From IMG/VR virus record IMGVR_UViG_2563366922_000004: a stretch of DNA of 33,415 bases. The stretch is one strand, 5' to 3'. A model generated the notes under the pieces. That model ran no database searches, was not told the DNA's origin, and worked only from the letters and a program-made list of their open reading frames with translations. Origin of the DNA: a virus. Its lineage: Duplodnaviria; Heunggongvirae; Uroviricota; Caudoviricetes. Positions 4,482-16,940 of this stretch are shown here, piece by piece. The translations under genes and the position numbers were made by a program. Position 1 is the stretch's first letter. Each line of letters opens with the position of its first letter.

Positions 4482-4814
4482 ATGACGAGCAAAGAAACCT
4501 TTACCCATTACCAGCCGCAGGGCAACAGTGACCCGGCTCATACCGCAACCGCGCCCGGCGGATTGAGTGCGAAAGCGCCTGCAATGACCCCGCTGATGCT
4601 GGACACCTCCAGCCGTAAGCTGGTTGCGTGGGATGGCACCACCGACGGTGCTGCCGTTGGCATTCTTGCGGTTGCTGCTGACCAGACCAGCACCACGCTG
4701 ACGTTCTACAAGTCCGGCACGTTCCGTTATGAGGATGTGCTCTGGCCGGAGGCTGCCAGCGACGAGACGAAAAAACGGACCGCGTTTGCCGGAACGGCAA
4801 TCAGCATCGTTTAA
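4482..4814 (+). CDS. D: Head decoration protein D (110 aa)
   Basis: [27 protein letters not shown]...AISIV matches lambda gpD; ORF track start at 4476 includes 2 extra codons, ATG at 4482 matches lambda. Confidence 0.92.
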
Positions 4815-4834
4815 CTTTACCCTTCATCACTAAA

Positions 4835-4856
4835 GGCCGCCTGTGCGGCTTTTTTT
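4835..4856 (+). terminator. Short GC hairpin (GGCCGC-ctgt-GCGGC) followed by T7 run between D and E
   Basis: Sequence aaaGGCCGCctgtGCGGCttttttt read directly; lies in the D-E intergenic spacer. Confidence 0.4.
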
Positions 4857-4869
4857 ACGGGATTTTTTT

Positions 4870-5145
4870 ATGTCGATGTACACAACCGCCCAACTGCTGG
4901 CGGCAAATGAGCAGAAATTTAAGTTTGATCCGCTGTTTCTGCGTCTCTTTTTCCGTGAGAGCTATCCCTTCACCACGGAGAAAGTCTATCTCTCACAAAT
5001 TCCGGGACTGGTAAACATGGCGCTGTACGTTTCGCCGATTGTTTCCGGTGAGGTTATCCGTTCCCGTGGCGGCTCCACCTCTGAATTTACGCCGGGATAT
5101 GTCAAACCCAAGCACTTAGCATGGCTTTCTGAGGCTTTCGTGTAG
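4870..5145 (+). pseudogene. E: Major capsid protein E, 5' fragment: 82 native codons then 9 insert-derived codons (LAWLSEAFV) and stop
   Basis: MSMYTTAQLLAANEQKFKFDPLFLRLFFRESYPFTTEKVYLSQIPGLVNMALYVSPIVSGEVIRSRGGSTSEFTPGYVKPKH matches lambda E residues 1-82; similarity ends abruptly at 5115/5116. Confidence 0.9.
5107..5115 (+). repeat. Left att core copy CCCAAGCAC (attL side)
   Basis: Matches the right copy CCGAAGCAT at 16152-16160 in 7 of 9 positions; both lie exactly where lambda-E homology ends and resumes. Confidence 0.6.
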
Positions 5146-5227
5146 TTGCTGGTTTTTACACTTAATCTTTTGATAATAAAGAATAAGTTTATCTGGCGCT
5201 TTCACTGAATTTTCCTCGTTATCTGTG

Positions 5228-5263
5228 TGTTGCAATCATCTCTGTATTGCAGCTTGTATTGCT
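5228..5263 (+). promoter_or_regulatory. Cluster of TGT(A/T)TTGCA direct repeats upstream of int; candidate integrase arm-type sites
   Basis: tgttgcaa (5228-5235), tgtattgca (5243-5251), tgtattgct (5255-5263); the same TGTATTGCA motif recurs twice near the other end at 16043-16063. Confidence 0.4.
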
Positions 5264-5277
5264 TTTTGGGGCTAAAA

Positions 5278-6513
5278 ATGGCTGGCGAGAACAAACTGAG
5301 CGACAAAGCGCTTAAAGGATATCTGGGGAAACCCAGAGAAAAGCAGATCACCATTGCTGATGGAAAGGGGCTTTCTATTCGTGTGAGTACTAAAGGGGCT
5401 GTGAGCTTTGTTTTCTTCTACAGGTTAGCAGGTGGCCGGGCTGCTCCGGTCTGGCTAACGTTGGGTAAATATCCTGATATGTCACTCAAACAGGCAAGGG
5501 AAAAGCGCGACGAGTGCCGTGGTTGGTTGGCTGACAAACGTGATCCGCGTATCCAGATTAAGATTCAGGCTGAAGAACGCTTAAAGCCGGTCACAGTGGA
5601 GGATGCACTAAATTACTGGTATGAAAATTACTGTAAGGTGCGTCGTAAAACTCATGCTGTAACGCTTGGCAGATTTCGAAAGCATATCTTTCCCTATATC
5701 GGTCATTTGCCCGTAAATGACACTCACCTATATGAATGGCTGGACTGTTTTGACCGAATTAAACGTAATGCACCAGTTATGGCGGCGTATGTTTTTTCTG
5801 ACACTAAATTAGCTCTTCGTTTTTGTCGGGTACGCCAGTACGCGACGTGTGATGCTTTAAAGGATTTGCGCATGAGTGATGTGGGGCAGATTGCAGGTAA
5901 GCGGGATCGGGTTCTGGATGAAGCCGAACTCGGCCAGCTCTGGAAGGCAATTTTTGTCGAGCCTGATTTAAAACTAATGTCTGAATACACGCGAAAAATG
6001 TTTGTGCTTTGTACAGTATTTGGATGTCGAATGAGTGAAGCCCGATTATCAGAATGGAGCGAATGGGATCTCGAAAGTTGGGTTTGGACTGTACCAAAAG
6101 ATCACTCAAAAACTGGTGTTGAAATCGTCAGACCAGTACCTGAAATTCTACGACAGTGGGTAACGGATGTTCACGAAGAGACAAAACATACTGGTTATGT
6201 GCTGGGAAGTCTGCGAATTAGAGAAAGCGTAAGCAAGATTGGGGGGAAAATCGGTAAACGTTTGGGCCATGAAAAACAATGGTCACTACACGACCTTAGA
6301 AGAACGCTATCTACTCATCTAAGTGATCTCGGTGTTGAATTTTATGTAGTAGAACAACTGTTAGGCCATGCGCTACCTGGCGTGGCAGGTGTTTACAATC
6401 GGAGTAAGTTTATGGCTAAAAAACTGGATGCTCTGGAACTCTGGACTACATATCTCAATAGCATCGCAGGTGCTGATTCAAAAGTGACAATCCTCAAACA
6501 AAAGGCTGGTTAA
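5278..6513 (+). CDS. int: Tyrosine recombinase / integrase (P4-like), probable ATG start at 5278
   Basis: N-terminal arm-binding-like region (GKYPDMSLKQAREKRDE) and C-terminal catalytic motifs (HDLRRT, LLGH, GVYNRS); ORF track opens at GTG 5227 but the homologous N-terminus begins MAGENKLSDKAL. Confidence 0.88.
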   Translation: MAGENKLSDKALKGYLGKPREKQITIADGKGLSIRVSTKGAVSFVFFYRLAGGRAAPVWLTLGKYPDMSLKQAREKRDECRGWLADKRDPRIQIKIQAEERLKPVTVEDALNYWYENYCKVRRKTHAVTLGRFRKHIFPYIGHLPVNDTHLYEWLDCFDRIKRNAPVMAAYVFSDTKLALRFCRVRQYATCDALKDLRMSDVGQIAGKRDRVLDEAELGQLWKAIFVEPDLKLMSEYTRKMFVLCTVFGCRMSEARLSEWSEWDLESWVWTVPKDHSKTGVEIVRPVPEILRQWVTDVHEETKHTGYVLGSLRIRESVSKIGGKIGKRLGHEKQWSLHDLRRTLSTHLSDLGVEFYVVEQLLGHALPGVAGVYNRSKFMAKKLDALELWTTYLNSIAGADSKVTILKQKAG

Positions 6514-6514
6514 C

Positions 6515-6742
6515 ATGAAAAAAATGGCAATTGTTGATAAAAAGGGTCTGGAGTACATTCCTAACATTGATCGTATGATCCGTGAGAAAGAATGTCGGGA
6601 GCTAACCACTCTTGCGAACAGCACACGCTGGAAGCTGGAGAAGGAAGGAAAATTTCCTAAGCGGATCAAGATTGGCGCTACTGCGGTAGCTTACCGTCTC
6701 TCCGAAGTTCAGGCATGGATTAGGGGGGAATGGCGGACATAA
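6515..6742 (+). CDS. alpA: AlpA-family HTH transcriptional regulator / excisionase-like protein (75 aa)
   Basis: Small protein directly after int with an AlpA-like helix-turn-helix region (ATAVAYRLSEVQAWIRGE); typical int-alpA pair of P4-like elements and PICIs. Confidence 0.8.
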   Translation: MKKMAIVDKKGLEYIPNIDRMIREKECRELTTLANSTRWKLEKEGKFPKRIKIGATAVAYRLSEVQAWIRGEWRT

Positions 6743-6778
6743 ATGTTGTAGTAAATTGTTATATAAAAGGGTGTAAGC

Positions 6779-7654
6779 ATGGCTACTCGAAAAAAAAATA
6801 GCGTAGAAATGAAAACTGTTTGTGAACTAATCATATCAAGAGATGATATGAAAGATAAAATTCAAGACAGAATTCAAAAAGGATTATTACTCCTACAGAA
6901 AAGCATAAATAACAATAGTGACTTGGAGCTGTTTAATGCTGATTACAGGAAATGGAGTGATTTTAATGCTGAGCTACTGAAGCGTAGTTTCACAAATGAT
7001 GATTTCAAAGAAGAATATGAAGGTGGGGCATTTGGTGTTATTTCATTGTACGAGACTTCCTTGGGAGAAAAAATCAGTGAGGCTACGCGTAAACTCCAGA
7101 GTAAGATAAGAAAACTAGAGTCGATTATGGAGCGACTGGAGTTAATTCCTATATCTTCCAAAGTTGTTGAAGAAAATATTGAAGTACCTCAGAGTTCAGC
7201 GGTAAAAACCAAAAAGGTATTCATTGTTCATGGAAGAGATGAAATATCAAAAACCAACTTAGAAGTGTTTTTAAGAGAAATTGGCTTAGAACCTATTGTT
7301 CTCCATAGGCAAGCTGATGTAGGTCAGACAGTGATTGAGAAATTTGAAGCAAATAGTGATGTTGGTTTCGCATTCATTCTTCTCACACCTGATGAGATCG
7401 CTTATTTATTGCCGCAAGACTCTTTACCTGATAATGAAAGAGAAAAGGAGTTACGTGCACGACCAAATGTAATGTTTGAATTTGGTTATTTCGTAGGGAA
7501 ATTAGGTCGTTCTAAGGTTTGTTGTCTATACACAGGTGATGTAGTGATTCCAAGTGATTTGAATGGTCTTATTTATAAAAAATTCAATTCTTCTATTGAA
7601 GAAGTAGCATATAGCATTATTAAAGACTTGCGAGCTACTGGTTACGCAGTTTAG
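6779..7654 (+). CDS. Two-domain protein: N-terminal coiled-coil-like region plus C-terminal TIR-like domain; candidate defence effector
   Basis: C-terminal half has the motifs I recall for bacterial TIR-like (COG4271-type) proteins: VFIVHGRD...LLTPDE...RARPNVMFEFGYFVGKLGR; the gene and its flanks are strongly AT-rich compared with neighbours. Confidence 0.55.
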   Translation: MATRKKNSVEMKTVCELIISRDDMKDKIQDRIQKGLLLLQKSINNNSDLELFNADYRKWSDFNAELLKRSFTNDDFKEEYEGGAFGVISLYETSLGEKISEATRKLQSKIRKLESIMERLELIPISSKVVEENIEVPQSSAVKTKKVFIVHGRDEISKTNLEVFLREIGLEPIVLHRQADVGQTVIEKFEANSDVGFAFILLTPDEIAYLLPQDSLPDNEREKELRARPNVMFEFGYFVGKLGRSKVCCLYTGDVVIPSDLNGLIYKKFNSSIEEVAYSIIKDLRATGYAV

Positions 7655-7683
7655 TAAATTCTTTGAACTAAAAATCTGCATAG

Positions 7684-7716
7684 ATATAGAGCCATTCGAG
7701 ATAAATGGCTCTATAT
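7684..7716. terminator. Perfect 13 bp inverted repeat with 7 nt loop between convergent genes; likely bidirectional terminator
   Basis: ATATAGAGCCATT-cgagata-AATGGCTCTATAT read directly; sits between the stop of 6779-7654 (+) and the stop of 7730-7909 (-). Confidence 0.5.
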
Positions 7717-7729
7717 GAAATATTATCTG

Positions 7730-7909
7730 TTAAATTTTGACTTCATATCCGCGTTGCTGTAGTTCTTTGCGAATAATCCTTTTAATCCAGGCTGCTAAAG
7801 ATTCGTCTCCATCTACTTGCTGTGCTTGCTCCATCAACTCCCTCAACTCAGGATCTAACCGAAACTGGAACGGAGGATTACCACGTCTTTGATTTTTGTG
7901 TGTTGACAC
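7730..7909 (-). CDS. Small Arc/MetJ-type ribbon-helix-helix DNA-binding protein (59 aa, GTG start); not in the ORF track
   Basis: Manual minus-strand translation gives (V)STHKNQRRGNPPFQFRLDPELRELMEQAQQVDGDESLAAWIKRIIRKELQQRGYEVKI, with a beta-strand then two helices as in Arc; start codon overlaps palindromes. Confidence 0.5.
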   Translation of the reverse strand: MSTHKNQRRGNPPFQFRLDPELRELMEQAQQVDGDESLAAWIKRIIRKELQQRGYEVKI

Positions 7910-7957
7910 GTCAATTACACCCGATGTAATGTGTTAATGTGTGATGACACATTACAT
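7903..7957. promoter_or_regulatory. Divergent control region: palindrome TTGAC-AC-GTCAA (7903-7914) and 10 bp inverted repeat ATGTAATGTG / CACATTACAT (7924-7933 / 7948-7957); candidate operator and promoter
   Basis: Inverted repeats read directly; TTGACA at 7903-7908 is a plausible -35 for the rightward operon; located between the RHH gene (-) and the 8040 operon (+). Confidence 0.35.
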
Positions 7958-8039
7958 ACGTGTTTAGGAAAATGCAACGCCTCGACGTGCGGGAACACCA
8001 TCGAGGCGTCTAACCAACCCGTTAAATGAGGTAACGATT

Positions 8040-8405
8040 ATGGCTGGAACACAGCATACCCAAACTCACCCTAAATTTATATACACCTTTCTGGCACTAC
8101 ACCACGACCGCATGGCAGATGGAGCAACTACGGTACATGTAGCCGCTGACACGCTGGTTGATGCCCGCAAGATGGTTAAGGAGATGGGCTATACTGCGGC
8201 TTTCTGGAAAGGGCGTGAAGAAAACACGCTGTTTATTCAGAAATGCGAAAACAATTTCATCTGGCGTTTTATCGCCCTGAGCACCGCACAACCGCGCGTG
8301 ATTCACATCGTGGCCACCAGCGAACAGGAAGCACGCCAGCAATCCCCGGCTGGCTGCGTGATGGTATTCGCCGCCCGTATTCGTCAGGGGGTATGCCATG
8401 CCTGA
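8040..8405 (+). CDS. Hypothetical protein; C-terminal part resembles Icd-like (cell-division-inhibitor-like) small proteins of P4-like elements
   Basis: C-terminal segment FIWRFIALSTAQPRVIHIVATSEQEARQQ...VFAARIRQG resembles the Icd-like pattern from memory; GAGG Shine-Dalgarno about 9 nt upstream of ATG 8040; first gene of a + operon. Confidence 0.45.
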   Translation: MAGTQHTQTHPKFIYTFLALHHDRMADGATTVHVAADTLVDARKMVKEMGYTAAFWKGREENTLFIQKCENNFIWRFIALSTAQPRVIHIVATSEQEARQQSPAGCVMVFAARIRQGVCHA

Positions 8406-8718
8406 TATGTCAAATTACCAGTACCTGATTAATCCGCATTTTAACTGTGAGCATGATATTGCTAAAAAGGTTTATTCCGCTGCGGATGGGGCTACTGACA
8501 ATATATCAATGGCTGTTGCGTCAATTGGTAGCCTGATGTGGCATGCGTCAGAAAATGAGGACTATGACGAAAAGGCTATGCGCATTGATATGGGTAATAT
8601 CGGTTTGTTACTGGCAATGCTTGGGCAGTTTGATATTTCGTTACGGTGCACCATTGAAAATGCCACAGATGCATTAAATGCCATAAAGAAAGCGAATACT
8701 GATTCAAATCGGGGATAA
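8398..8718 (+). CDS. Hypothetical protein (106 aa)
   Basis: ORF with ATGCCTGA start/stop overlap with the upstream gene (translational coupling); no recognisable family. Confidence 0.45.
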   Translation: MPDMSNYQYLINPHFNCEHDIAKKVYSAADGATDNISMAVASIGSLMWHASENEDYDEKAMRIDMGNIGLLLAMLGQFDISLRCTIENATDALNAIKKANTDSNRG

Positions 8719-8724
8719 ATAATC

Positions 8725-9024
8725 ATGAGAACATATTTATCTGGCTTGACTGCCAGCGGTTATGCACACCCCAAAATTATCCCCGGCGCTATTTATCTGG
8801 ATAAGAACGGTAACAGAGTAACGGTAAAAGAACTGATGTTTGACCGTGTGTATTTTATTCGTGATGGCTATTCATTTCATAGTTCGCTGAACGTGGAGAT
8901 CTTTATTAGCAGATTCAGGCGGGAAATCCCGCTTTCCAGAAATAACCATGTGTCATGTATGGATGTTGATAAAAAACTACAGGAACTGAAAAACATGATT
9001 GCCGCGTGGAGAGAGCAGAAATGA
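8725..9024 (+). CDS. Hypothetical protein (99 aa)
   Basis: ORF in operon context immediately upstream of the primase gene; no recognisable family. Confidence 0.45.
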   Translation: MRTYLSGLTASGYAHPKIIPGAIYLDKNGNRVTVKELMFDRVYFIRDGYSFHSSLNVEIFISRFRREIPLSRNNHVSCMDVDKKLQELKNMIAAWREQK

Positions 9025-10838
9025 AAAAAGCGCCAAATTTAAAACACCAGCCGCGTGACAAAATGACGGAAGTCATCATTTTTGCGGGTAGTGATGCGTG
9101 GGCACATGCGAAACAGTGGCAGGAACAGGACGGGCGACTGGCTGGCGATAACGTGCCACCTGTCTGGCTTGGAGAGCAACAACTTGCCGAACTGGACAAC
9201 CTGCAAATCGTACCGGACGGACGCTATCGCGTGCGTCTCTATCAGGCGGGGTTATTGCGTCCGGGGCTTGTTAATACCATCGGGCAGAAACTGGCAGTGG
9301 CAGGTGTCAGGGATGCTGATTATTACCCTGAAGGAATGCACAGCCAGAAACGGGAGAACTGGCGCGAATATCTGGAACGTGAACGGGCAGAGCAGGCGGA
9401 AAAGAAAAAGGTAGTTGAACTGCCTGTAAAGAAAAAAGAGCGGGTAAAAGACGATAACGCTTCATCACTGGCGCTTAACCAGATGGGAGCAAGTCAACGC
9501 GGCGAAGTTCTCCTGGCACATTATGGCGGTGAACTGGCGATTCATGCTGACTCTGACACTGTTCACCATTACAACGGCGTTGTATGGGAGCCAGTACAGG
9601 ATAAAGAATTACAGCGAGCTATGGCACAGATTTTCATTGATGCGGAGATCAGCTATTCGCAGAACGCCATTAAATCGGCGGTCGATACCATGAAGTTAAG
9701 TTTGCCTGTAATGGGGAATACAGCCCGTAACCTGATTGGATTCAGTAACGGGGTATTTGATACCAGAACAGGTAATTTTCGGGAGCATAACAAAAACGAC
9801 TGGTTGTTAATTGCCAGTGAATTACCTTTCAGCCCACCAGCAGAGGGGGAAACGCTGGCAACACATGCGCCGAATTTCTGGAAGTGGTTACGCCGTTCGG
9901 TGGCTGAGAATGACCGCAAGGCGGATCGCGTACTGGCTGCATTATTCATGGTGCTGGCGAACCGGTACGACTGGCAGTTATTCATTGAGGTAACAGGTCC
10001 AGGGGGAAGTGGTAAAAGCGTGATGGCGGAGATTTGCACCATGCTGGCGGGTAAGGCCAACACAGTATCGGCAAGCATGAAGGCGCTGGAAGATGCAAGG
10101 GAACGCGCGTTAGTGGTTGGCTTTTCGCTGATTATCATGCCGGATATGACCCGCTACGCTGGTGATGGGGCAGGGATTAAGGCTATTACAGGCGGTGACA
10201 AGGTGGCAATTGACCCGAAACACAAAGCCCCCTACTCAACGCGTATTCCGGCAGTAGTGCTGGCGGTTAACAATAACGCCATGTCATTCAGTGACCGCAG
10301 CGGGGGGATCTCACGTCGTCGGGTGATATTCAATTTTTCGGAAGTTGTACCGGAGAACGAACGCGATCCAATGCTGGCGGAAAAAATAGAAGGTGAGTTG
10401 GCGGTAGTGATTCGCCATCTGCTTACACGGTTTGCTGACCAGGACGAAGCCAGACGCCTGTTATATGAGCAGCAGAAATCTGAAGAAGCACTGGCGATAA
10501 AGCGAGAGGGGGATTCGCTGGTGGACTTCTGCGGCTATCTCATGGCGTCGGTAATGTGTGATGGCCTGTTAGTGGGTAATGCTGAAATTGTGCCATTCAG
10601 CCCACGCAGGTATCTCTATCATGCCTATCTGGCTTATATGAGGGCACATGGGTTTGGTAAACCTGTAACACTGACGCGCTTCGGTAAAGATATGCCGGGG
10701 GCAATGGCGGAATATGGCAGGGAGTATATGAAACGGAAAACGAAGCACGGTTTGCGTTCAAACGTGACACTGACGGAGGAATCAGAAGACTGGATGCCAT
10801 CATGTGTATCGGTCACTAATGACGATAGCAAAAATTAA
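9006..10838 (+). CDS. Replication protein: primase / SF3-type helicase (P4-family), start 9006 or 9021
   Basis: Walker A motif VTGPGGSGKS and Walker B-like SLIIMPD; 610 aa; immediately followed by an iteron array. Confidence 0.82.
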   Translation: MERAEMKKAPNLKHQPRDKMTEVIIFAGSDAWAHAKQWQEQDGRLAGDNVPPVWLGEQQLAELDNLQIVPDGRYRVRLYQAGLLRPGLVNTIGQKLAVAGVRDADYYPEGMHSQKRENWREYLERERAEQAEKKKVVELPVKKKERVKDDNASSLALNQMGASQRGEVLLAHYGGELAIHADSDTVHHYNGVVWEPVQDKELQRAMAQIFIDAEISYSQNAIKSAVDTMKLSLPVMGNTARNLIGFSNGVFDTRTGNFREHNKNDWLLIASELPFSPPAEGETLATHAPNFWKWLRRSVAENDRKADRVLAALFMVLANRYDWQLFIEVTGPGGSGKSVMAEICTMLAGKANTVSASMKALEDARERALVVGFSLIIMPDMTRYAGDGAGIKAITGGDKVAIDPKHKAPYSTRIPAVVLAVNNNAMSFSDRSGGISRRRVIFNFSEVVPENERDPMLAEKIEGELAVVIRHLLTRFADQDEARRLLYEQQKSEEALAIKREGDSLVDFCGYLMASVMCDGLLVGNAEIVPFSPRRYLYHAYLAYMRAHGFGKPVTLTRFGKDMPGAMAEYGREYMKRKTKHGLRSNVTLTEESEDWMPSCVSVTNDDSKN

Positions 10839-10850
10839 ACTTATGGAATA

Positions 10851-11075
10851 ACTGTTCACCACTGTTCACCCTGTCATAAATATCTTTTATATCAGTATAT
10901 TATAGGGTGAACAGTTATTTATGAACTGTTCACCAAACTATTCACTGTTCACCTTTTTGATTGTTTATTGAGCTTCAAGGGTGAACAGTGGTGAACAGTT
11001 GGTGAATAGTTTTTGTGAAACTGTTCACCCCTTAACATTATGAATTAAAAGAGAAAATATCAAAAGGTGAACAGG
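10851..11075. repeat. Iteron-type replication origin: about 10 copies of CTGTTCACC / GGTGAACAG in both orientations with an AT-rich centre
   Basis: Copies read directly at about 10852, 10862, 10906, 10926, 10945, 10979, 10990, 11000 (variant GGTGAATAG), 11021 and 11066; directly downstream of the primase gene. Confidence 0.7.
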
Positions 11076-11125
11076 TGAAGGGTTAAAACGCAAAAATTTT
11101 AATTTACTGCTGTGAGATAAAGCCT

Positions 11126-11371
11126 ATGACAGCGAAGCACACAAAAAAATCACAATCGCACGCCCTTGATTTGACGGAACACTGGTTAAGGGTGTCGATA
11201 AAAATCATTGACCGCAACGCCGGGGAAGGATATGCGAAAGCACATCCCGAACTGATTAGCGCATTCATGACAACGGCAGCTGCAAACTTTGCCACGCTGA
11301 CAGAACGGGAGATTGCCGAAGCGGAACAGGTGACAACCATCAACGTTAAAACCGGAGAGCAGACAGCATGA
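11126..11371 (+). CDS. Hypothetical protein (81 aa)
   Basis: ORF whose stop overlaps the start of the downstream SSB-like gene (ATGA); no recognisable family. Confidence 0.35.
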   Translation: MTAKHTKKSQSHALDLTEHWLRVSIKIIDRNAGEGYAKAHPELISAFMTTAAANFATLTEREIAEAEQVTTINVKTGEQTA

Positions 11372-11790
11372 CAGCACAGATAGCGGCTTACGGACGGCTG
11401 GTGGCTGACCCGCAGTTAAAGACCACCAGCAAGGGTACACAAATGACGATGGCGAGTATGGCGGTCCCCCTTCCGTGCAGCCAGGCAGATGACGGAACGG
11501 CGCCGATGTGGTTATCCGTCCTGGCGTTTGGCAGACAGGCCGACGCACTGGCAAAACACCACAAAGGCGAACTGGTGAGCGTGGCGGGTAACATGCAGGT
11601 AAGCCAGTGGACAGGCCAGAACGGCGAAACGCGGCAGGGCTGGCAGGTTATCGCAGACAGTGTAATCAGTGCCAGAACGGCGCGACCGGGCGGCAAAAAA
11701 GGTCAACAGGGCCAGGCTACTGACGCACTGAACAGGGCAAAACAACAGTCGGGGAATGATGATCCGTACGGCGATAATATACCGTTTTAA
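11368..11790 (+). CDS. ssb: Single-stranded DNA-binding protein (SSB-like, 140 aa)
   Basis: OB-fold-like N-terminal region and acidic C-terminal tail ending DDPYGDNIPF, resembling the E. coli SSB tail DFDDDIPF. Confidence 0.65.
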   Translation: MTAQIAAYGRLVADPQLKTTSKGTQMTMASMAVPLPCSQADDGTAPMWLSVLAFGRQADALAKHHKGELVSVAGNMQVSQWTGQNGETRQGWQVIADSVISARTARPGGKKGQQGQATDALNRAKQQSGNDDPYGDNIPF

Positions 11791-11807
11791 ATTCTGCAAA
11801 TAAAAAA

Positions 11808-11836
11808 ATGCCGGAAGAAAATAGATTTTCCGGCAT
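11808..11836. other. 9 bp stem hairpin (ATGCCGGAA...TTCCGGCAT) preceded by an A7 run; possible terminator after ssb
   Basis: Inverted repeat read directly. Confidence 0.3.
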
Positions 11837-12001
11837 GCTACATAAATCCCGACCAAAGGAAGTAAATACATTAACACGAATTATCAGCACTGAAGTTGTC
11901 ACGGCATATTTTATACAACATTGCACTTGGTTGCATGTATTCGCATAGCAGACATCGGTAATAGAATATATTCACAATTATTTGTAATGAATGTAAAGAG
12001 G

Positions 12002-13048
12002 ATGAGTATGGTTGATTTATATTCGCCTACACAGCTTGTGCAGGTGGCTAATGCTGAAGATGTGCAAAAAAAATTAAATGCGTTGTTTACCAGTTTGTTT
12101 TTCACTCGCTCGGTAATGTTTGAATCGAGAGACATTATTCTTGATACGATCGACGATCCAAATATCCCGATCGCGGCGTTTTGCTCTCCTATGGTGGGCA
12201 GTAAAGTTTCACGAGATGAGGGATACGAATCAAAAACAATTCGCCCTGGCTATATGAAACCGAAAAGCAGCATTGATCCAAATAAGTTAGCTGTGCGCCC
12301 TGCTGGTGTGTCACCTGAGCAATACAATGCTTTTGGGGCGCGTAATATTAAAGTTAAACAGGCGATTGTAAATCAGGCTAAAGCTATTCGTACACGTATT
12401 GAATGGCTTGCTGTTCAGGCAATCACAACGGGGAAAAATATCATTGAGGGCGATGGTATTGAACGTTATGAGCTGGACTGGAATATAAAACCACAAAATA
12501 TCATCACTCAGTCTGGCGGTACTGAGTGGTCAGGTAAGGATAAAGAAACTTTTGATCCAAATGATGATATTGAGAGCTACGCAGAATTTAGTGAGGGCGT
12601 CACTAATATCATCATTATGGGCGGTAATGTATGGAAGAAATACCGTTCATTCAGAGCGATAAAAGAGGCTCTGGATACCCGTCGTGGTTCTAATTCCGAA
12701 CTGGAAACGGCCCTTAAAGACCTTGGTGATTCGGTGAGTTTTAAAGGGTATATGGGCGATGTTGCGATTGTTGTTTACAGCGGGCGTTATACCGACGAGG
12801 ACGGAACTGAAAAACATTTCCTTGATCCTGATTTGATGGTGCTTGGCAATACGGCTCTTCAGGGGATTGTCGCTTATGGCGGTATTCAGGATCCGGAGCT
12901 AATCCGGATGGGGCTGACTAAAGCCGAACTTGCACCGAAAAACTATATTGTGCCTGGTGATCCGGCTATTGAATATGTGCAGACACATTCAGCACCACAG
13001 CCAATACCGGCCCGTATCAATCGTTTTGTTACCGTTCGCATTGGCTAA
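12002..13048 (+). CDS. Insert-encoded major capsid protein, diverged homolog of lambda gpE (about 349 aa)
   Basis: MSMVDLYSPTQLVQVANAEDV... aligns along its length with lambda E (shared motifs ITQSGGTEWS, LDTRRGSNSELETA, GDVAIVVYSG) but is clearly diverged; start chosen by analogy with lambda E (MSM...), ORF track opens at 11921. Confidence 0.85.
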   Translation: MSMVDLYSPTQLVQVANAEDVQKKLNALFTSLFFTRSVMFESRDIILDTIDDPNIPIAAFCSPMVGSKVSRDEGYESKTIRPGYMKPKSSIDPNKLAVRPAGVSPEQYNAFGARNIKVKQAIVNQAKAIRTRIEWLAVQAITTGKNIIEGDGIERYELDWNIKPQNIITQSGGTEWSGKDKETFDPNDDIESYAEFSEGVTNIIIMGGNVWKKYRSFRAIKEALDTRRGSNSELETALKDLGDSVSFKGYMGDVAIVVYSGRYTDEDGTEKHFLDPDLMVLGNTALQGIVAYGGIQDPELIRMGLTKAELAPKNYIVPGDPAIEYVQTHSAPQPIPARINRFVTVRIG

Positions 13049-13058
13049 GGGGGGAGCA

Positions 13059-13400
13059 ATGGCTACTCATTACACTGAACTCATGGCTGGCACTGAAGCA
13101 CTGGTTACTACGCTGGGGATATTTTCAGCTAATAAAGGGGTAATTCCTGCATTTACGCCACTGATGCAGGAAGATACAACAGGTGCACTGGTGGTATGGG
13201 ATGGTACGAGTGCAGGTAAAGCTGTTTATGTTTCCGCTGTACAACTCGATACAGCGAAAAAAACACAGGCTCAGGTCTATAAGACAGGTGTCTTAAATGT
13301 TGATGCTCTTAACTGGCCTGAGTCAGTAAAAGAACTGTCAGTAAAGGTTGCAGCGTTTGTTGGCTCAGGTATTTCTGTTCAGCCGCTGGCTCGTGTGTAA
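13059..13400 (+). CDS. Insert-encoded head decoration protein, diverged homolog of lambda gpD (113 aa)
   Basis: MATHYTELMAGTEALVTT...ALVVWDGTSAGKAV...YKTGVLN parallels lambda D ([13 protein letters not shown]...YKSGTF); start ATG 13059 preceded by GGGGAG. Confidence 0.78.
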   Translation: MATHYTELMAGTEALVTTLGIFSANKGVIPAFTPLMQEDTTGALVVWDGTSAGKAVYVSAVQLDTAKKTQAQVYKTGVLNVDALNWPESVKELSVKVAAFVGSGISVQPLARV

Positions 13401-13411
13401 AGGGGGATACA

Positions 13412-13795
13412 ATGCAGAATCATTACAATGACCTTAAGCCAATTGCCGAAATGATGTATCCGGATCCAGCAGTAGAGGAATTAAAGGCTATTGCTGACAA
13501 AATGCGTTTAAGCGAGCGTCTTGTTGATATGAATCAGGTGATGGAACTTACAACCCTGAGTCGTCGTACACTGCTAAACCTTGAAGCACGTGGAGAGTTC
13601 CCCGAACGCGTGCAGGTTACGGAAGGGCGTAAGGCCTGGTATTTAAGCGAAGTGATCGACTGGATAAACAATATTCCGCGCGCTTCTGAATATTGCCGCG
13701 TACCTGTCCCAAAAAAGCCAGATGCGGCGCTATGCCTCAAGATTGATCGTGTACGCCGCAATGCACGGGATGGTCGCTATAAGCTGATTGGTTGA
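13412..13795 (+). CDS. HTH protein (AlpA/MerR-like winged helix region), immediately upstream of cos; possible packaging accessory or late regulator
   Basis: Central segment MELTTLSRRTLLNLEARGEFPERVQVTEGRKAWYLSEVIDWINN resembles AlpA-type HTH; function not assignable from sequence. Confidence 0.45.
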   Translation: MQNHYNDLKPIAEMMYPDPAVEELKAIADKMRLSERLVDMNQVMELTTLSRRTLLNLEARGEFPERVQVTEGRKAWYLSEVIDWINNIPRASEYCRVPVPKKPDAALCLKIDRVRRNARDGRYKLIG

Positions 13796-13839
13796 TGAAA
13801 TTAGGGCCCGTTCTGGCTGGCGGGTCCTTTCCGGCGATC

Positions 13840-13890
13840 CGGCAGGTTACGGGGCGTCAGGCGCGCGGGTTTTCGCTATTTATGAGCATT
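13840..13890. promoter_or_regulatory. cos site of the insert (cosN-like): GTTACG-GGGCGTCAGGCG-CGCGGGTTTTCGCTATTTATGA
   Basis: Flanking bases match my recollection of lambda cosN (GTTACG / CGCGGGTTTTCGCTATTTATGA) while the 12 nt between them (13852-13863) differs from lambda's GGGCGGCGACCT; lies just upstream of a Nu1-like gene, as in lambda. Confidence 0.6.
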
Positions 13891-14011
13891 TTAAGGGGAC
13901 TGGTGGTGGTTTTGTTGTTCGCTATATCTGTATGAATAATAAGAGAAAAATACAATCAATACACCAACCTGAAACAGTAATTAAGTTGTGGTATCAATGA
14001 AATTACACCTG

Positions 14012-14539
14012 ATGAACAAAAAAAACATGGCAAAAAGTTGCCGTGTAAGCGCCACTGCGTTCGATAAGTGGGGAGTGATTCCCGTCGAGCGTAAGGGCCG
14101 TGAGGCGTTCTATGATGTTGCCAGTGTAATAGATAATCGGGTTAACAATGCAATCAGCCAGATTACAAACGAAACGGGCGATATTGATGACGATGAACTT
14201 TTACGCGTCAGGATCAGATTACTGACAGCACAGGCAGAGGCGCAGGAGCTTAAAAACGAGCGCGAACGCGGCGACGTTATTGATACAGAGTTTTGTATGT
14301 ATGTTCTTTCCAAACTGGCGAGTCAGATTTCATCTATCATGGACAGCCTGCCGCTTACCATGCAAAGGCGCTTCCCACAGATGACTCCGGCTATGCTGGA
14401 TGGACTTAAAAAGGAAGTGGCTAAAGCCTGTAATGCCAGTGCCGGCGTTGCTGACAACCTCCCACAGATACTGGCTGATTATCTGATGGAAAGTACAGGA
14501 AACGTACCGGATAAGTTGCAGCTGAATAAGGATAAGTAA
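14012..14539 (+). CDS. Terminase small subunit, Nu1-like, with divergent N-terminal DNA-binding region (start 14012, or 13997/14027)
   Basis: C-terminal two-thirds parallels lambda Nu1 (RLLTAQAEAQELKN...TEFCMYVLSKLASQISSIMDSLPLTMQRRFP vs lambda RLTRAQADAQELKN...TAFCTFVLSRIAGEIASILDGLPLSVQRRFP); N-terminus differs. Confidence 0.78.
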   Translation: MNKKNMAKSCRVSATAFDKWGVIPVERKGREAFYDVASVIDNRVNNAISQITNETGDIDDDELLRVRIRLLTAQAEAQELKNERERGDVIDTEFCMYVLSKLASQISSIMDSLPLTMQRRFPQMTPAMLDGLKKEVAKACNASAGVADNLPQILADYLMESTGNVPDKLQLNKDK

Positions 14540-14550
14540 CGTAGTACGCT

Positions 14551-14826
14551 ATGACTGAATCCGAACTACTGAAAGTAATCTGCCATGCTGGTGGAGTCAG
14601 CCACCAGCATGACGAACAGACCACGCAGCCGGGCAGTGTCACCGCTGAAAATTACGCTCGTGTGGTTGCTGAGGTTATGTGGCGTGACGGTATAGAACTG
14701 AACGGACAGGATTGCTTAGTCATCCGCACCAAAGTGCTGGCTATACTGGCAGCTAGGCGGAGGCAGGGACAACGCCAGAACGTTGCATCGTACCAGTGGA
14801 AGAAGCCTGACAGACTGCGGCGATAA
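14551..14826 (+). CDS. Hypothetical protein (91 aa)
   Basis: ORF directly downstream of the small terminase gene; no recognisable family. Confidence 0.4.
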   Translation: MTESELLKVICHAGGVSHQHDEQTTQPGSVTAENYARVVAEVMWRDGIELNGQDCLVIRTKVLAILAARRRQGQRQNVASYQWKKPDRLRR

Positions 14827-15122
14827 CTCTTTGATTTTCTCGACGGCCCCAAAATGGGCCTTACCATAGCCAGCTAATAAATGAGCAAGCCTCAAAAGTG
14901 AGGTTTGTGGCCGTTTGGCCTATTCATATGCTAACTCGTTGATATTCCTGACGACGCAAATTTACGCCTTGTGGCTGGTAGTCGAATTGCAAATTTGCAA
15001 CTCAACTATGAAACTACAGGTAGTTTGGGTAGTAAAAGCAACACACTGATTTTGGGGCTTCTTCGCGATACCTAATATTATGGTATCGGTGGAAGAGATA
15101 TCGTTTCTCATAGGTTAGCACC

Positions 15123-15142
15123 GAGGGCGGAGTTCCGCCCTC
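15123..15142. other. Perfect inverted repeat GAGGGCGGA-gt-TCCGCCCTC in the ORF-free spacer downstream of the HEPN gene
   Basis: Read directly; no clear U-run on either strand, so terminator function is uncertain. Confidence 0.3.
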
Positions 15143-15228
15143 ATCGAAAAATTGCTTACGAGTCGTCAAAATAAATTAATCGACTGAGTATAATGATTAA
15201 CTAATTGCTCGTGTTACTTCATTATACG

Positions 15229-15990
15229 TTATTTCCCATCTTTAAGGTTTAACCAAGTGTTAATTAAAAAAAGAGCCATTGAGCCTGATAAATTTACTGC
15301 AAGTTCGGCATGCCTTGGGGATGGCTTAATTGATGAGCTGTTCGTTCCATGTGCATCACCGAGTTTATTACGAAGAGTACCTAACCCATTTACAACTGCA
15401 GAACAACCGCCGAGAATTTGTTTGAAGATATTTTCAGTATGTTGGTCGGCAGATAGGTTAAGTTCTTTTGAAAGAGTTTTATAAAGCTCTGACATTTCAA
15501 TATTTTTATTATTATACTGAATGCCCATATCATCAAGAATGTGTTTGCAAACTGTTTCAAGAAGTGTTCTTGCGGAGGTTATCGCACCATCCGGATCTGT
15601 ATGGCGCCGTTCAAGTGCTTTTATCCAAACGGCGTGGACTCCATCCTCGTTAAACTTTCTTAATACATCAGATATGTCTTCATCCGCTGGAGCTTTATTT
15701 TTCCCTTCTAGATAGTCCAGCATCGGCTGAAATGCCTTATAAATCAAATCTCTCCGGGGGGCATACTTTTCAGTCTTTTTTATAAATCCCCAAAATTCTT
15801 TTAGTGAGCGATTAGTTCTCACAAACTCTGGTAATAGCTGATGTAAAGGAGGATTTTGTAAGAAATATGTTCTTAGAAGCAAATAATCATTATTAGCTTC
15901 ATCCTGGGCTCCTGTAGCTCTTGCAATTAGTATGTTTTGAAGCGCTACTGCGCGCTCTAGGTCATTTTGAAGGGTATCTATAATATTCAT
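15229..15990 (-). CDS. HEPN-domain protein of the Abi_C (abortive infection C-terminal) type, 253 aa
   Basis: Contains R-x6-H motif in LRNKLGDAHG preceded by ...ITSARTLLETVCKHILDDMGIQY...LYKTLSKELNL...ENIFKQILGGCSAVVNGLGT, matching my recollection of Abi_C; only minus-strand gene in the insert besides the RHH; AT-rich. Confidence 0.65.
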   Translation of the reverse strand: MNIIDTLQNDLERAVALQNILIARATGAQDEANNDYLLLRTYFLQNPPLHQLLPEFVRTNRSLKEFWGFIKKTEKYAPRRDLIYKAFQPMLDYLEGKNKAPADEDISDVLRKFNEDGVHAVWIKALERRHTDPDGAITSARTLLETVCKHILDDMGIQYNNKNIEMSELYKTLSKELNLSADQHTENIFKQILGGCSAVVNGLGTLRNKLGDAHGTNSSSIKPSPRHAELAVNLSGSMALFLINTWLNLKDGK

Positions 15991-16042
15991 AACAAATCTT
16001 TATTCACTTCATTTGTGGGTTGATAATTGAATGGTTTGTACA

Positions 16043-16063
16043 TTGATTTCTGTGTATTGCAGT
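16043..16063 (+). promoter_or_regulatory. Two TGTATTGCA direct repeats near the right end; candidate integrase arm-type sites
   Basis: Same 9-mer as at 5243-5263 near the left end; 12 bp spacing. Confidence 0.4.
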
Positions 16064-16151
16064 GTGTATTGCAACATAGCCATTCAGGTAGAGATTATGC
16101 TCTATTTTTCCTCTTATATCATTCACATACTTACACCATTGACTCATGTAG

Positions 16152-16160
16152 CCGAAGCAT
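16152..16160 (+). repeat. Right att core copy CCGAAGCAT (attR side; E codons P-K-H)
   Basis: Direct repeat partner of 5107-5115; immediately followed by E codon 83 (gaa gtg aat = EVN). Confidence 0.6.
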
Positions 16161-16940
16161 GAAGTGAATCCGCAGATGACCCTGCGTCGCCTGCCGGATG
16201 AAGAACCGCAGAATCTGGCGGACCCGGCTTACCGCCGCCGTCGCATCATCATGCAGAACATGCGTGACGAAGAGCTGGCCATTGCTCAGGTCGAAGAGAT
16301 GCAGGCAGTTTCTGCCGTGCTTAAGGGCAAATACACCATGACCGGTGAAGCCTTCGATCCGGTTGAGGTGGATATGGGCCGCAGTGAGGAGAATAACATC
16401 ACGCAGTCCGGCGGCACGGAGTGGAGCAAGCGTGACAAGTCCACGTATGACCCGACCGACGATATCGAAGCCTACGCGCTGAACGCCAGCGGTGTGGTGA
16501 ATATCATCGTGTTCGATCCGAAAGGCTGGGCGCTGTTCCGTTCCTTCAAAGCCGTCAAGGAGAAGCTGGATACCCGTCGTGGCTCTAATTCCGAGCTGGA
16601 GACAGCGGTGAAAGACCTGGGCAAAGCGGTGTCCTATAAGGGGATGTATGGCGATGTGGCCATCGTCGTGTATTCCGGACAGTACGTGGAAAACGGCGTC
16701 AAAAAGAACTTCCTGCCGGACAACACGATGGTGCTGGGGAACACTCAGGCACGCGGTCTGCGCACCTATGGCTGCATTCAGGATGCGGACGCACAGCGCG
16801 AAGGCATTAACGCCTCTGCCCGTTACCCGAAAAACTGGGTGACCACCGGCGATCCGGCGCGTGAGTTCACCATGATTCAGTCAGCACCGCTGATGCTGCT
16901 GGCTGACCCTGATGAGTTCGTGTCCGTACAACTGGCGTAA
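16161..16940 (+). pseudogene. E: Major capsid protein E, 3' fragment (codons 83-341, beginning EVNPQMTLRRLPD...)
   Basis: Translation matches lambda E from residue 83 to the C-terminal ...FVSVQLA; 82 + 259 = 341 codons, the full length of lambda E. Confidence 0.9.

Follow-up and report, generated by a model that had tools for sequence, protein, structure and literature searches.

The window analyzed here, a 33,415-nt stretch of DNA, is the late region of a lambda-like prophage whose major capsid gene, E, is interrupted. Alignment to lambda E (NC_001416 6135-7160) matched E nt 1-236 to window positions 4870-5105 with 0 mismatches and E nt 236-1026 to positions 16150-16940 with a single mismatch, at E291, which causes the substitution D97E (E followed by a number denotes a nucleotide of lambda E throughout). 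Between these parts lies an 11,045-bp insert, absent from lambda, which splits the helper gene after nt 235/236, in codon K79. The 5' fragment (E nt 1-235; 4870-5104, + strand) is 100% identical to lambda E and matches Pfam Phage_cap_E at 3.3e-15, with protein residues 5-82 aligning to profile positions 1-78. Translation shows that it runs on into the insert as a 91-aa fusion ORF, which ends ...KPKHLAWLSEAFV* at 5145. The 3' fragment (E nt 243-1026; 16157-16940, + strand) carries the one mismatch to lambda and begins with the B' core-type half-site, GCATGAA. When 4870-5104, either copy of the 7-bp segment discussed below and 16157-16940 were joined in silico, the result was a 1026-nt ORF encoding gpE with the D97E change. 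The insertion into helper E, first noticed in a sequence-only reading of the window, is therefore real and confirmed.

Both junctions carry an imperfect 11-bp direct repeat: AACCCAAGCAC on the left (attL, 5105-5115, + strand), which is the feature originally flagged, and AGCCGAAGCAT on the right (attR, 16150-16160). The copies match at 8/11 positions, and the attR copy is identical to lambda. They differ at E237 (A in attL, G in attR), E240 (C/G) and E246 (C/T); all three differences fall at third codon positions and are synonymous (AAA/AAG for K79, CCC/CCG for P80 and CAC/CAT for H82), so that both copies still encode K-P-K-H. The sequence-only reading had recorded the C/G and C/T differences and had missed the A/G difference at E237. 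It had also placed the core in the codons for P-K-H, which is nearly right for the repeat as a whole (K79 bases 2-3, P80, K81 and H82 bases 1-2), but the probable strand-exchange segment lies in K-P-K, with H82 in the flanking arm. Because an 8/11 match arises in a random 200-bp stretch of the window with a probability of 0.15, the repeat is not significant by itself, and its significance rests on the base-exact split of E.

The inserted element belongs to the 11capE family of helper-embedded PICIs (HE-PICIs) and occupies the site E:Phage_cap_E:80. The founder of this family, the 11-kb element Eco567.11capE, was described in E. coli NRG857c, where prophage 50icd carries it within a lambda-like capsid gene, along with 201 elements at E:Phage_cap_E:80 and 290 more at 13 other late-gene sites (Tommasini, Mageeney and Williams 2023, NAR Genom Bioinform; PMC10111431). 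In that study, mitomycin C caused the composite to excise and replicate, after which the satellite excised precisely, as confirmed by attB and attP reads; experimental proof of excision is thus limited to the founder, from which particles were not recovered (PMC10111431). The window has E split at K79, an integrase of the right clade, the doubled motif tgTGTATTGCantgTGTATTGCa at the right spacing and the zone order of this group. Its integrase is identical to that of the founder at 410/411 aa, a near-identity that we took as enough to place it in the HE-PICI clade. Compared with the founder, the element shows 99% nucleotide identity in its first 1.6 kb and 94% in the replication/capsid block, and it has different cargo modules. 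The two elements share the E target codon, the orientation, the doubled TGTATTGC motifs and their spacings, and a backbone of int-alpA-(cargo)-icd-DUF4222-primase-SSB-capsid-decoration-HTH at 94-99% nucleotide identity.

The whole composite (at least 80% of the query) was found in 40 complete E. coli genomes; the best 20 were 100.0% identical to the window over 11.7 kb, and the remaining E. coli composite matches listed were near-identical to it. Any match at all was obtained in 3,745 E. coli genomes, a figure made up mostly of E and D gene fragments and integrase relatives that does not measure prevalence. No isolated phage genome with the composite was found among the phage records, which match only the E and D flanks. 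The arrangement was already known, since it was published in 2023 together with its exact site, its arm motifs and the diverged paralogue of the capsid gene, and recognizing it here is a correct rediscovery. The interest that remains lies in the heterologous overlap of the window's instance and in a possible synonymous scar in helper capsid genes.

The satellite opens with the gene for its tyrosine integrase (5278-6513, + strand), which has Pfam Arm-DNA-bind_3, SAM-like and catalytic domains, and continues with an AlpA-family regulator that is a putative excisionase (6515-6742, + strand; Pfam Phage_AlpA, 6e-15). A cargo gene for a TIR-domain protein (6779-7654, + strand; Pfam 1.2e-33) scores as the candidate defense system PDC-S35 in PADLOC (6.9e-67) and is of the CAP12/Pycsar type. 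Pfam and RefSeq annotation then place genes for an Icd-like protein and a DUF4222 protein, in that order, between the TIR gene and a satellite primase/helicase (9021-10838, + strand; Pfam D5_N, DUF5906 and Pox_D5), with an SSB gene (11368-11790) 3' of the primase. Next come the satellite's own E-family major capsid gene (12008-13048, + strand; Pfam Phage_cap_E, 5.6e-41), whose product is 42% identical to gpE, and its own gpD-family head decoration gene (13059-13400, + strand; Pfam HDPD, 1.9e-15). A second AlpA-like HTH protein is encoded between the decoration gene and a homologue of the small terminase gene nu1, and an AbiJ-like abortive-infection gene (15229-15990, - strand; Pfam Abi_C, 1.3e-23; PADLOC AbiJ, 2.2e-21) is the second cargo gene. 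The backbone genes all lie on the + strand, as does the helper late operon, and the PICI zones follow in order by Pfam and RefSeq annotation: integration (int and alpA), a variable zone, replication (primase and SSB) and late genes. An Rfam scan at the gathering threshold found no P4-like C4/isrK immunity RNAs in 4800-16400.

Two defense-type cargo genes thus sit one near either end of the satellite, the TIR gene (PDC-S35) and, on the opposite strand, the AbiJ-like gene. The end zone of the founder holds DUF262/HEPN genes instead, which suggests that the TIR and AbiJ positions are slots for swappable cargo. Upstream of the satellite, the D-E intergenic region just 5' of the E start (4836-4870) contains a G+C-rich stem followed by T-runs, and a terminator is annotated at this stem in some lambda-like phage records; the stem bears on late transcription that reaches E' and enters the satellite integrase gene. 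The helper prophage (locus L001) also has, among its genes for lysis and late functions, an ompC-like porin gene (9013-10095) and iss, a bor-like serum survival gene (11886-12179); both are morons of a kind typical of lambdoid phages and have no bearing on the capsid-gene insertion.

The late zone differs from that of the founder, which was described without terS. A cos-like segment (13820-13892, + strand) is 89% identical over 73 bp to the helper cos region (blastn match to L001 12906-12978, just 5' of helper nu1), and it is followed by a Nu1-family small terminase homologue (13997-14539, + strand; Pfam Phage_Nu1, 1e-24) that is 36% identical over 179 aa to helper Nu1. In 13820-14539, then, the cos-like segment stands directly 5' of a full-length Nu1-family homologue. 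Given that the founder was described without terS, a satellite with its own TerS/cos pair of this kind may redirect packaging. We also considered whether the element is a capsid-forming PICI (cf-PICI), a class defined by a complete terminase-portal-protease-capsid-connector module, and rejected this assignment: no portal, protease or large terminase gene is present in 5105-16156, where the head module consists of only the capsid, decoration and Nu1-like genes. The satellite shares with EcCICFT073 and other Gram-negative PICIs (Fillol-Salom et al., cited in PMC10111431) a length of about 11 kb, the int-alpA-primase-late zones, lambdoid helpers and capsid-related late genes. Those PICIs, however, occupy sites in chromosomal genes and interact with their helpers only in trans, whereas the satellite in the window lies inside the helper late operon and splits a structural gene.

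Doubled TGTATTGC arm motifs flank the core of the window at the published spacings. The P' arm (5112-5277, + strand) starts with the core-type half-site GCACTTA (5112-5118) and contains the arm-type motifs TGTGTTGCA (5226-5234), TGTATTGCA (5243-5251) and TGTATTGCT (5255-5263). The first of these is a third, degenerate copy; the doubled motif itself (5241-5263) starts about 133 bp downstream of the overlap center at 5108. In the P arm (15991-16149, + strand), which ends with the core-type half-site CTCATGT (16143-16149), a repeat search placed the doubled motif TGTGTATTGCAgTGTGTATTGCA, of the arm type, at 16051-16073, so that 80 bp separate its end from the overlap center, which lies downstream at 16153. 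The published distances of the doubled motif from the attP center are 132 +/- 2 bp downstream and 81 +/- 2 bp upstream (PMC10111431). At attR, an inverted repeat, TCATGT-N7-GCATGA, surrounds the overlap. A further 11-nt perfect inverted repeat, ATTCACTTCAT at 16002-16012 and ATGAAGTGAAT at 16159-16169, was considered as an extra integrase site mirroring the B' arm. The ATGAAGTGAAT copy corresponds to E nt 245-255, immediately to the right of the core, and the ATTCACTTCAT copy lies in the P arm, in the leader of the cargo abi gene. Since this repeat recurs in only 5/44 distinct attR-upstream regions, it is probably due to chance or specific to the cargo, and we rejected it as an integrase site.

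The attachment site lies inside a conserved capsid motif, as the sequence-only reading had proposed. Among 40 non-redundant E-family proteins (less than 95% identical, drawn from a search of 5.8 billion proteins and including the satellite capsid), P75, G76, K79, P80 and K81 are invariant; the K-P-K site agrees with the published one (PMC10111431) and is the same in 63/63 readable attL junctions of related elements. That reading had further suggested that the site would be present in every related helper. This holds for the protein, but at the DNA level there are at least seven overlap variants at two wobble positions. With so many variants and with identity between attL and attR preferred (see below), a given satellite copy would be best suited to only some helpers.

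The satellite's own capsid gene likewise keeps the PGYMKPK motif followed by a different downstream sequence, which bears out another part of the early description: the PGYMKPK codons lie at 12245-12265 and are followed by SSIDPNK, compared with HEVNPQM in gpE, and IRPGYMKPKSSIDPNK occupies the position of gpE FTPGYVKPKHEVNPQM. The corresponding site reads TATATGA-AACCGAA-AAGCAGC in the satellite and TATGTCA-AGCCGAA-GCATGAA in lambda. Its overlap equivalent, AACCGAA (12258-12264), fits the consensus ARCCNAA, and while the left arm matches lambda at 5/7 positions, the right, B' arm matches at 0/7. The att-equivalent region of the capsid homologue has been described as too different for self-integration (PMC10111431). 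Because the satellite's 7-mer would be an acceptable overlap and its right half-site has no match, integration into its own capsid gene is probably blocked by the B' arm and not by the core.

To locate the point of strand exchange, we compared 67 loci with close integrase relatives in IMG/VR, taken with 10-kb flanks, which yielded 63 readable attL junctions and 41 distinct attL/attR pairs. All 63 attL junctions lie in E, directly after PGYVKPK. They share the sequence AAGCAC-TTAGCAT and are invariant from E243 rightwards (GCAC-TTAGCAT), while E237 and E240 vary, in seven combinations. On the left, E235 differs in all 41 distinct pairs, with A on the helper (B) side and T on the satellite (P) side. 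On the right, all 41 distinct attL have G at E243, whereas five distinct elements with an AAA codon for helper K81 have A at this position in attR. These two boundaries confine the exchanged segment to E236-242, and we infer that the strand-exchange overlap is the 7-bp sequence ARCCNAA. It would span K79 base 2 to K81 base 2, with 5/7 bases fixed by K-P-K and two at wobble positions. The published table includes the identity blocks 'agccgaa' (3), 'agccaaa' (1) and 'aagccgaa' (1) (PMC10111431), the first two of which are exactly this 7-mer. attL and attR are identical over E236-242 in 34/41 distinct pairs, compared with 35% expected (p=3e-10), and the identical pairs include rare variants. Identity in this segment therefore matters, as expected of an overlap.

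Placed on the window, the predicted overlap is AACCCAA in attL (5105-5111, + strand; bounded by E235 and E243) and AGCCGAA, the lambda E236-242 sequence, in attR (16150-16156, + strand). The three differences in the 11-bp repeat then fall into two kinds. E246 C/T lies outside the overlap, where it distinguishes the P' arm from the B' arm in nearly every instance. E237 A/G and E240 C/G, in contrast, would be heterology within the overlap, with 2 of its positions differing between attL and attR. Taken as a whole, the explanation that the repeats are the attL and attR cores of an 11capE HE-PICI, with a 7-bp overlap and with the E237/E240 heterology inside it, has in our estimate a probability of roughly 85%.

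Such heterology is not confined to the window, whose pair is one of 7/41 (~17%) heterologous attL/attR pairs that occur in both orientations. In the founder, the two sides share a perfect 10-bp identity block, AACCCAAGCA, whereas the window has AACCC on one side and AGCCG on the other; its pair belongs to the class of the truncated published block 'aagca', reported for 18/201 elements (PMC10111431). Overlap heterology is not discussed in that paper. Two IMG/VR contigs, 2537561603_000004 (L171) and 2541047817_000002 (L172), carry the same satellite, with 1 SNP in 10.7 kb, and have identical E flanks but reciprocal overlap arrangements. Their helper regions upstream, from terminase to protease, differ by 118 SNPs, which indicates that recombination has replaced helper segments beside the embedded satellite. 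The sequence-only reading had derived the left copy from attP. This stands for E246 C and everything to its right, in keeping with the invariant AAGCAC-TTAGCAT, but E237 and E240 are not assignable: AACCC and AGCCG are both natural alleles of uninterrupted E on lambda-identical backgrounds, and both are also found in satellites. Linking the two variants to P-arm types gave no assignment of their source either, as all types occurred with both variants.

Recombination across heterologous overlaps is normally very inefficient with tyrosine integrases of the lambda type, so a mismatch in 17% of pairs calls for either unusual tolerance or another source. The longest identical run in the window's repeat is 5 bp (AAGCA), short of the 6-8 bp shared under strict lambda-type overlap identity. 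Like lambda Int, the enzyme is a tyrosine integrase that acts on arm-type and core-type sites with an overlap of about 7 bp, and identical overlaps are clearly favored (34/41). It differs in that ~17% of natural pairs are unlike at two overlap positions, a higher share than the lambda precedent leads one to expect, and in this it would resemble Tn916 Int and the CTnDOT integrase IntDOT, two heterology-tolerant enzymes that contrast with the overlap-homology rule of lambda Int. In the established mechanism of tyrosine recombinases, with top strands exchanged at the left edge of the overlap and bottom strands at the right, recombination between unlike overlaps leaves a heteroduplex attL and a heteroduplex attR, and these, once replicated, give just the two reciprocal configurations seen in L171 and L172. 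We tentatively propose, at somewhat less than even odds, that the integrase recombines overlaps that are unlike at the K79 and P80 wobble positions, that the resulting heteroduplexes segregate and that successive cycles swap a 7-bp synonymous patch between satellite and helper.

If overlaps are swapped in this way, uninterrupted E genes might retain a trace of it. Uninterrupted lambda-like E genes were gathered from two sources: IMG/VR, where we used a protein search and an unbiased scan for the pattern, and an independent metagenome sample. In these genes the site reads AAGCCGAAGCAT or AAACCCAAGCAT, and E246 is always T in the first 80. That first linkage set, the 80 E genes most similar to lambda, is biased; the IMG/VR sample taken in order of scan and the metagenome sample gave the same result. 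Among 165 distinct alleles from the two collections, treated with no phylogenetic control for shared ancestry, E228 and E249, which are 21 bp apart and span the site, are in complete linkage disequilibrium (LD; 21:0, Fisher p=4.6e-6), with only 21 carriers of the E228 minor allele. The E237/E240 pair, by contrast, is unlinked to the E228 and E249 SNPs 9 bp away (p=0.23 and p=0.14; D' 0.09-0.18). Of 299 SNP triples within 30 bp, the E228-E237/E240-E249 triple comes first; it contributes four of the five smallest D' values among 68 SNP pairs at most 12 bp apart, and the metagenome sample alone shows the same pattern. Ordinary recombination does not readily move a patch of at most ~20 bp independently of the sequences on both sides, so the pattern is suggestive, and it would fit overlap swapping by the satellite that leaves a silent scar in E. 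A further pair of common SNPs, E993 and E1001, 8 bp apart (L070-L149, L217-L457), has a D' of about 0.15 and may be another exchange point or noise; a D' this low in an unrelated pair calls for caution in the linkage argument.

An alternative is that integration always uses identical overlaps and that the mixed pairs arose later, when homologous recombination within the 11-kb satellite joined AACCC/AACCC and AGCCG/AGCCG composites. We regard this as a minor but genuine prospect. Lambdoid E genes and prophages recombine heavily, with all four gametes present in nearly all SNP pairs; satellites that share a P arm occur in both homozygous configurations (L159 and L192, as against L171 and L172); the 118 SNPs that separate the L171 and L172 helpers upstream attest to recombination nearby; and both reciprocal products would be expected. 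Against it, E237/E240 is unlinked in uninterrupted E while the flanks stay in complete LD, whereas recombination inside the satellite would instead uncouple the two halves of E. The uninterrupted alleles would, moreover, still need an excision across a heterologous overlap.

An exchange of another kind would place the crossover within AAGCA, at E241-245. AACCC would then be the prophage's own E allele and AGCCG part of the satellite P arm, with no heterologous exchange at all, and at E237 and E240 the left copy would owe nothing to attP. This would account for the 'aagca' identity block that TIGER assigned to 18 such elements (PMC10111431), and it is compatible with the occurrence of AAACCCAAGCAT in uninterrupted E on lambda-identical backgrounds (17/80, plus further examples) and with the existence of satellites that have AGCCG beside the same P arm. 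Five distinct elements, however, have AAACA in attR and AAGCA in attL. In these the identity block is exactly E236-242, and a crossover at E241-245 would itself span the E243 mismatch. The agreement of attL and attR at E237/E240 in 34/41 pairs, against the 35% expected (p=3e-10), also speaks against it. A 5-bp exchange would, in addition, be shorter than any tyrosine-recombinase overlap known to us. We therefore consider a crossover at E241-245 unlikely. The last alternative, that the 8/11 repeat is a chance match and that the insert entered E by transposition or illegitimate recombination, can appeal to the 15% chance of such a match in a random 200-bp stretch of the window, but it is refuted by the recurrence of the same junction (63/63 readable attL among integrase relatives and 201 published cases), by the adjacent tyrosine integrase with its positioned arm motifs and by the precise excision of the founder confirmed by sequencing (PMC10111431).

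The favored mechanism can be set out as a whole. A tyrosine integrase of the P4-like kind, with AlpA probably serving as excisionase, would bind the doubled TGTATTGC sites ~80 bp upstream and ~133 bp downstream of the core and exchange strands over the 7-bp ARCCNAA at E nt 236-242. Integration splits E, so that helper capsid protein cannot be produced before the satellite has excised, late after induction, and excision restores E exactly. The satellite meanwhile has diverged capsid and decoration genes of its own, and with an entirely different B' half-site its capsid gene presents no target. Where satellite and E allele had different synonymous overlaps, the recombinant sites would be heteroduplexes that segregate at replication, and the same process at excision would write the satellite overlap into helper E as a silent scar. 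We infer both the heteroduplex origin of the attL/attR mismatch and the scar from the comparisons described above.

Elements that place a gene's integrity under regulated control are known from other systems, such as the skin element in sigK of B. subtilis and the Listeria phage in comK. The HE-PICI resembles them in that a coding gene is split with no replacement end and in that a precise, timed excision restores the gene; it differs in that the gene it splits is part of another mobile element, the helper phage, and in that the satellite benefits from the regulation. The concept of regulated gene integrity has been discussed for these elements (PMC10111431). A satellite within the helper capsid gene holds back helper capsid production until it excises.

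If overlaps are indeed swapped, each satellite would take on the overlap of the helper it last occupied, and silent scars of past occupancy would remain in helper capsid genes. The AACCC/AGCCG dimorphism, unlinked to SNPs only 9 bp away, would then be the population trace of overlap exchange, and it could reflect an arms race at the synonymous sites of an invariant K-P-K. Tolerance of heterology by the integrase would explain how one satellite lineage can follow helpers whose targets differ at wobble positions, and synonymous variation in a phage structural gene could then serve as a record of satellite traffic.
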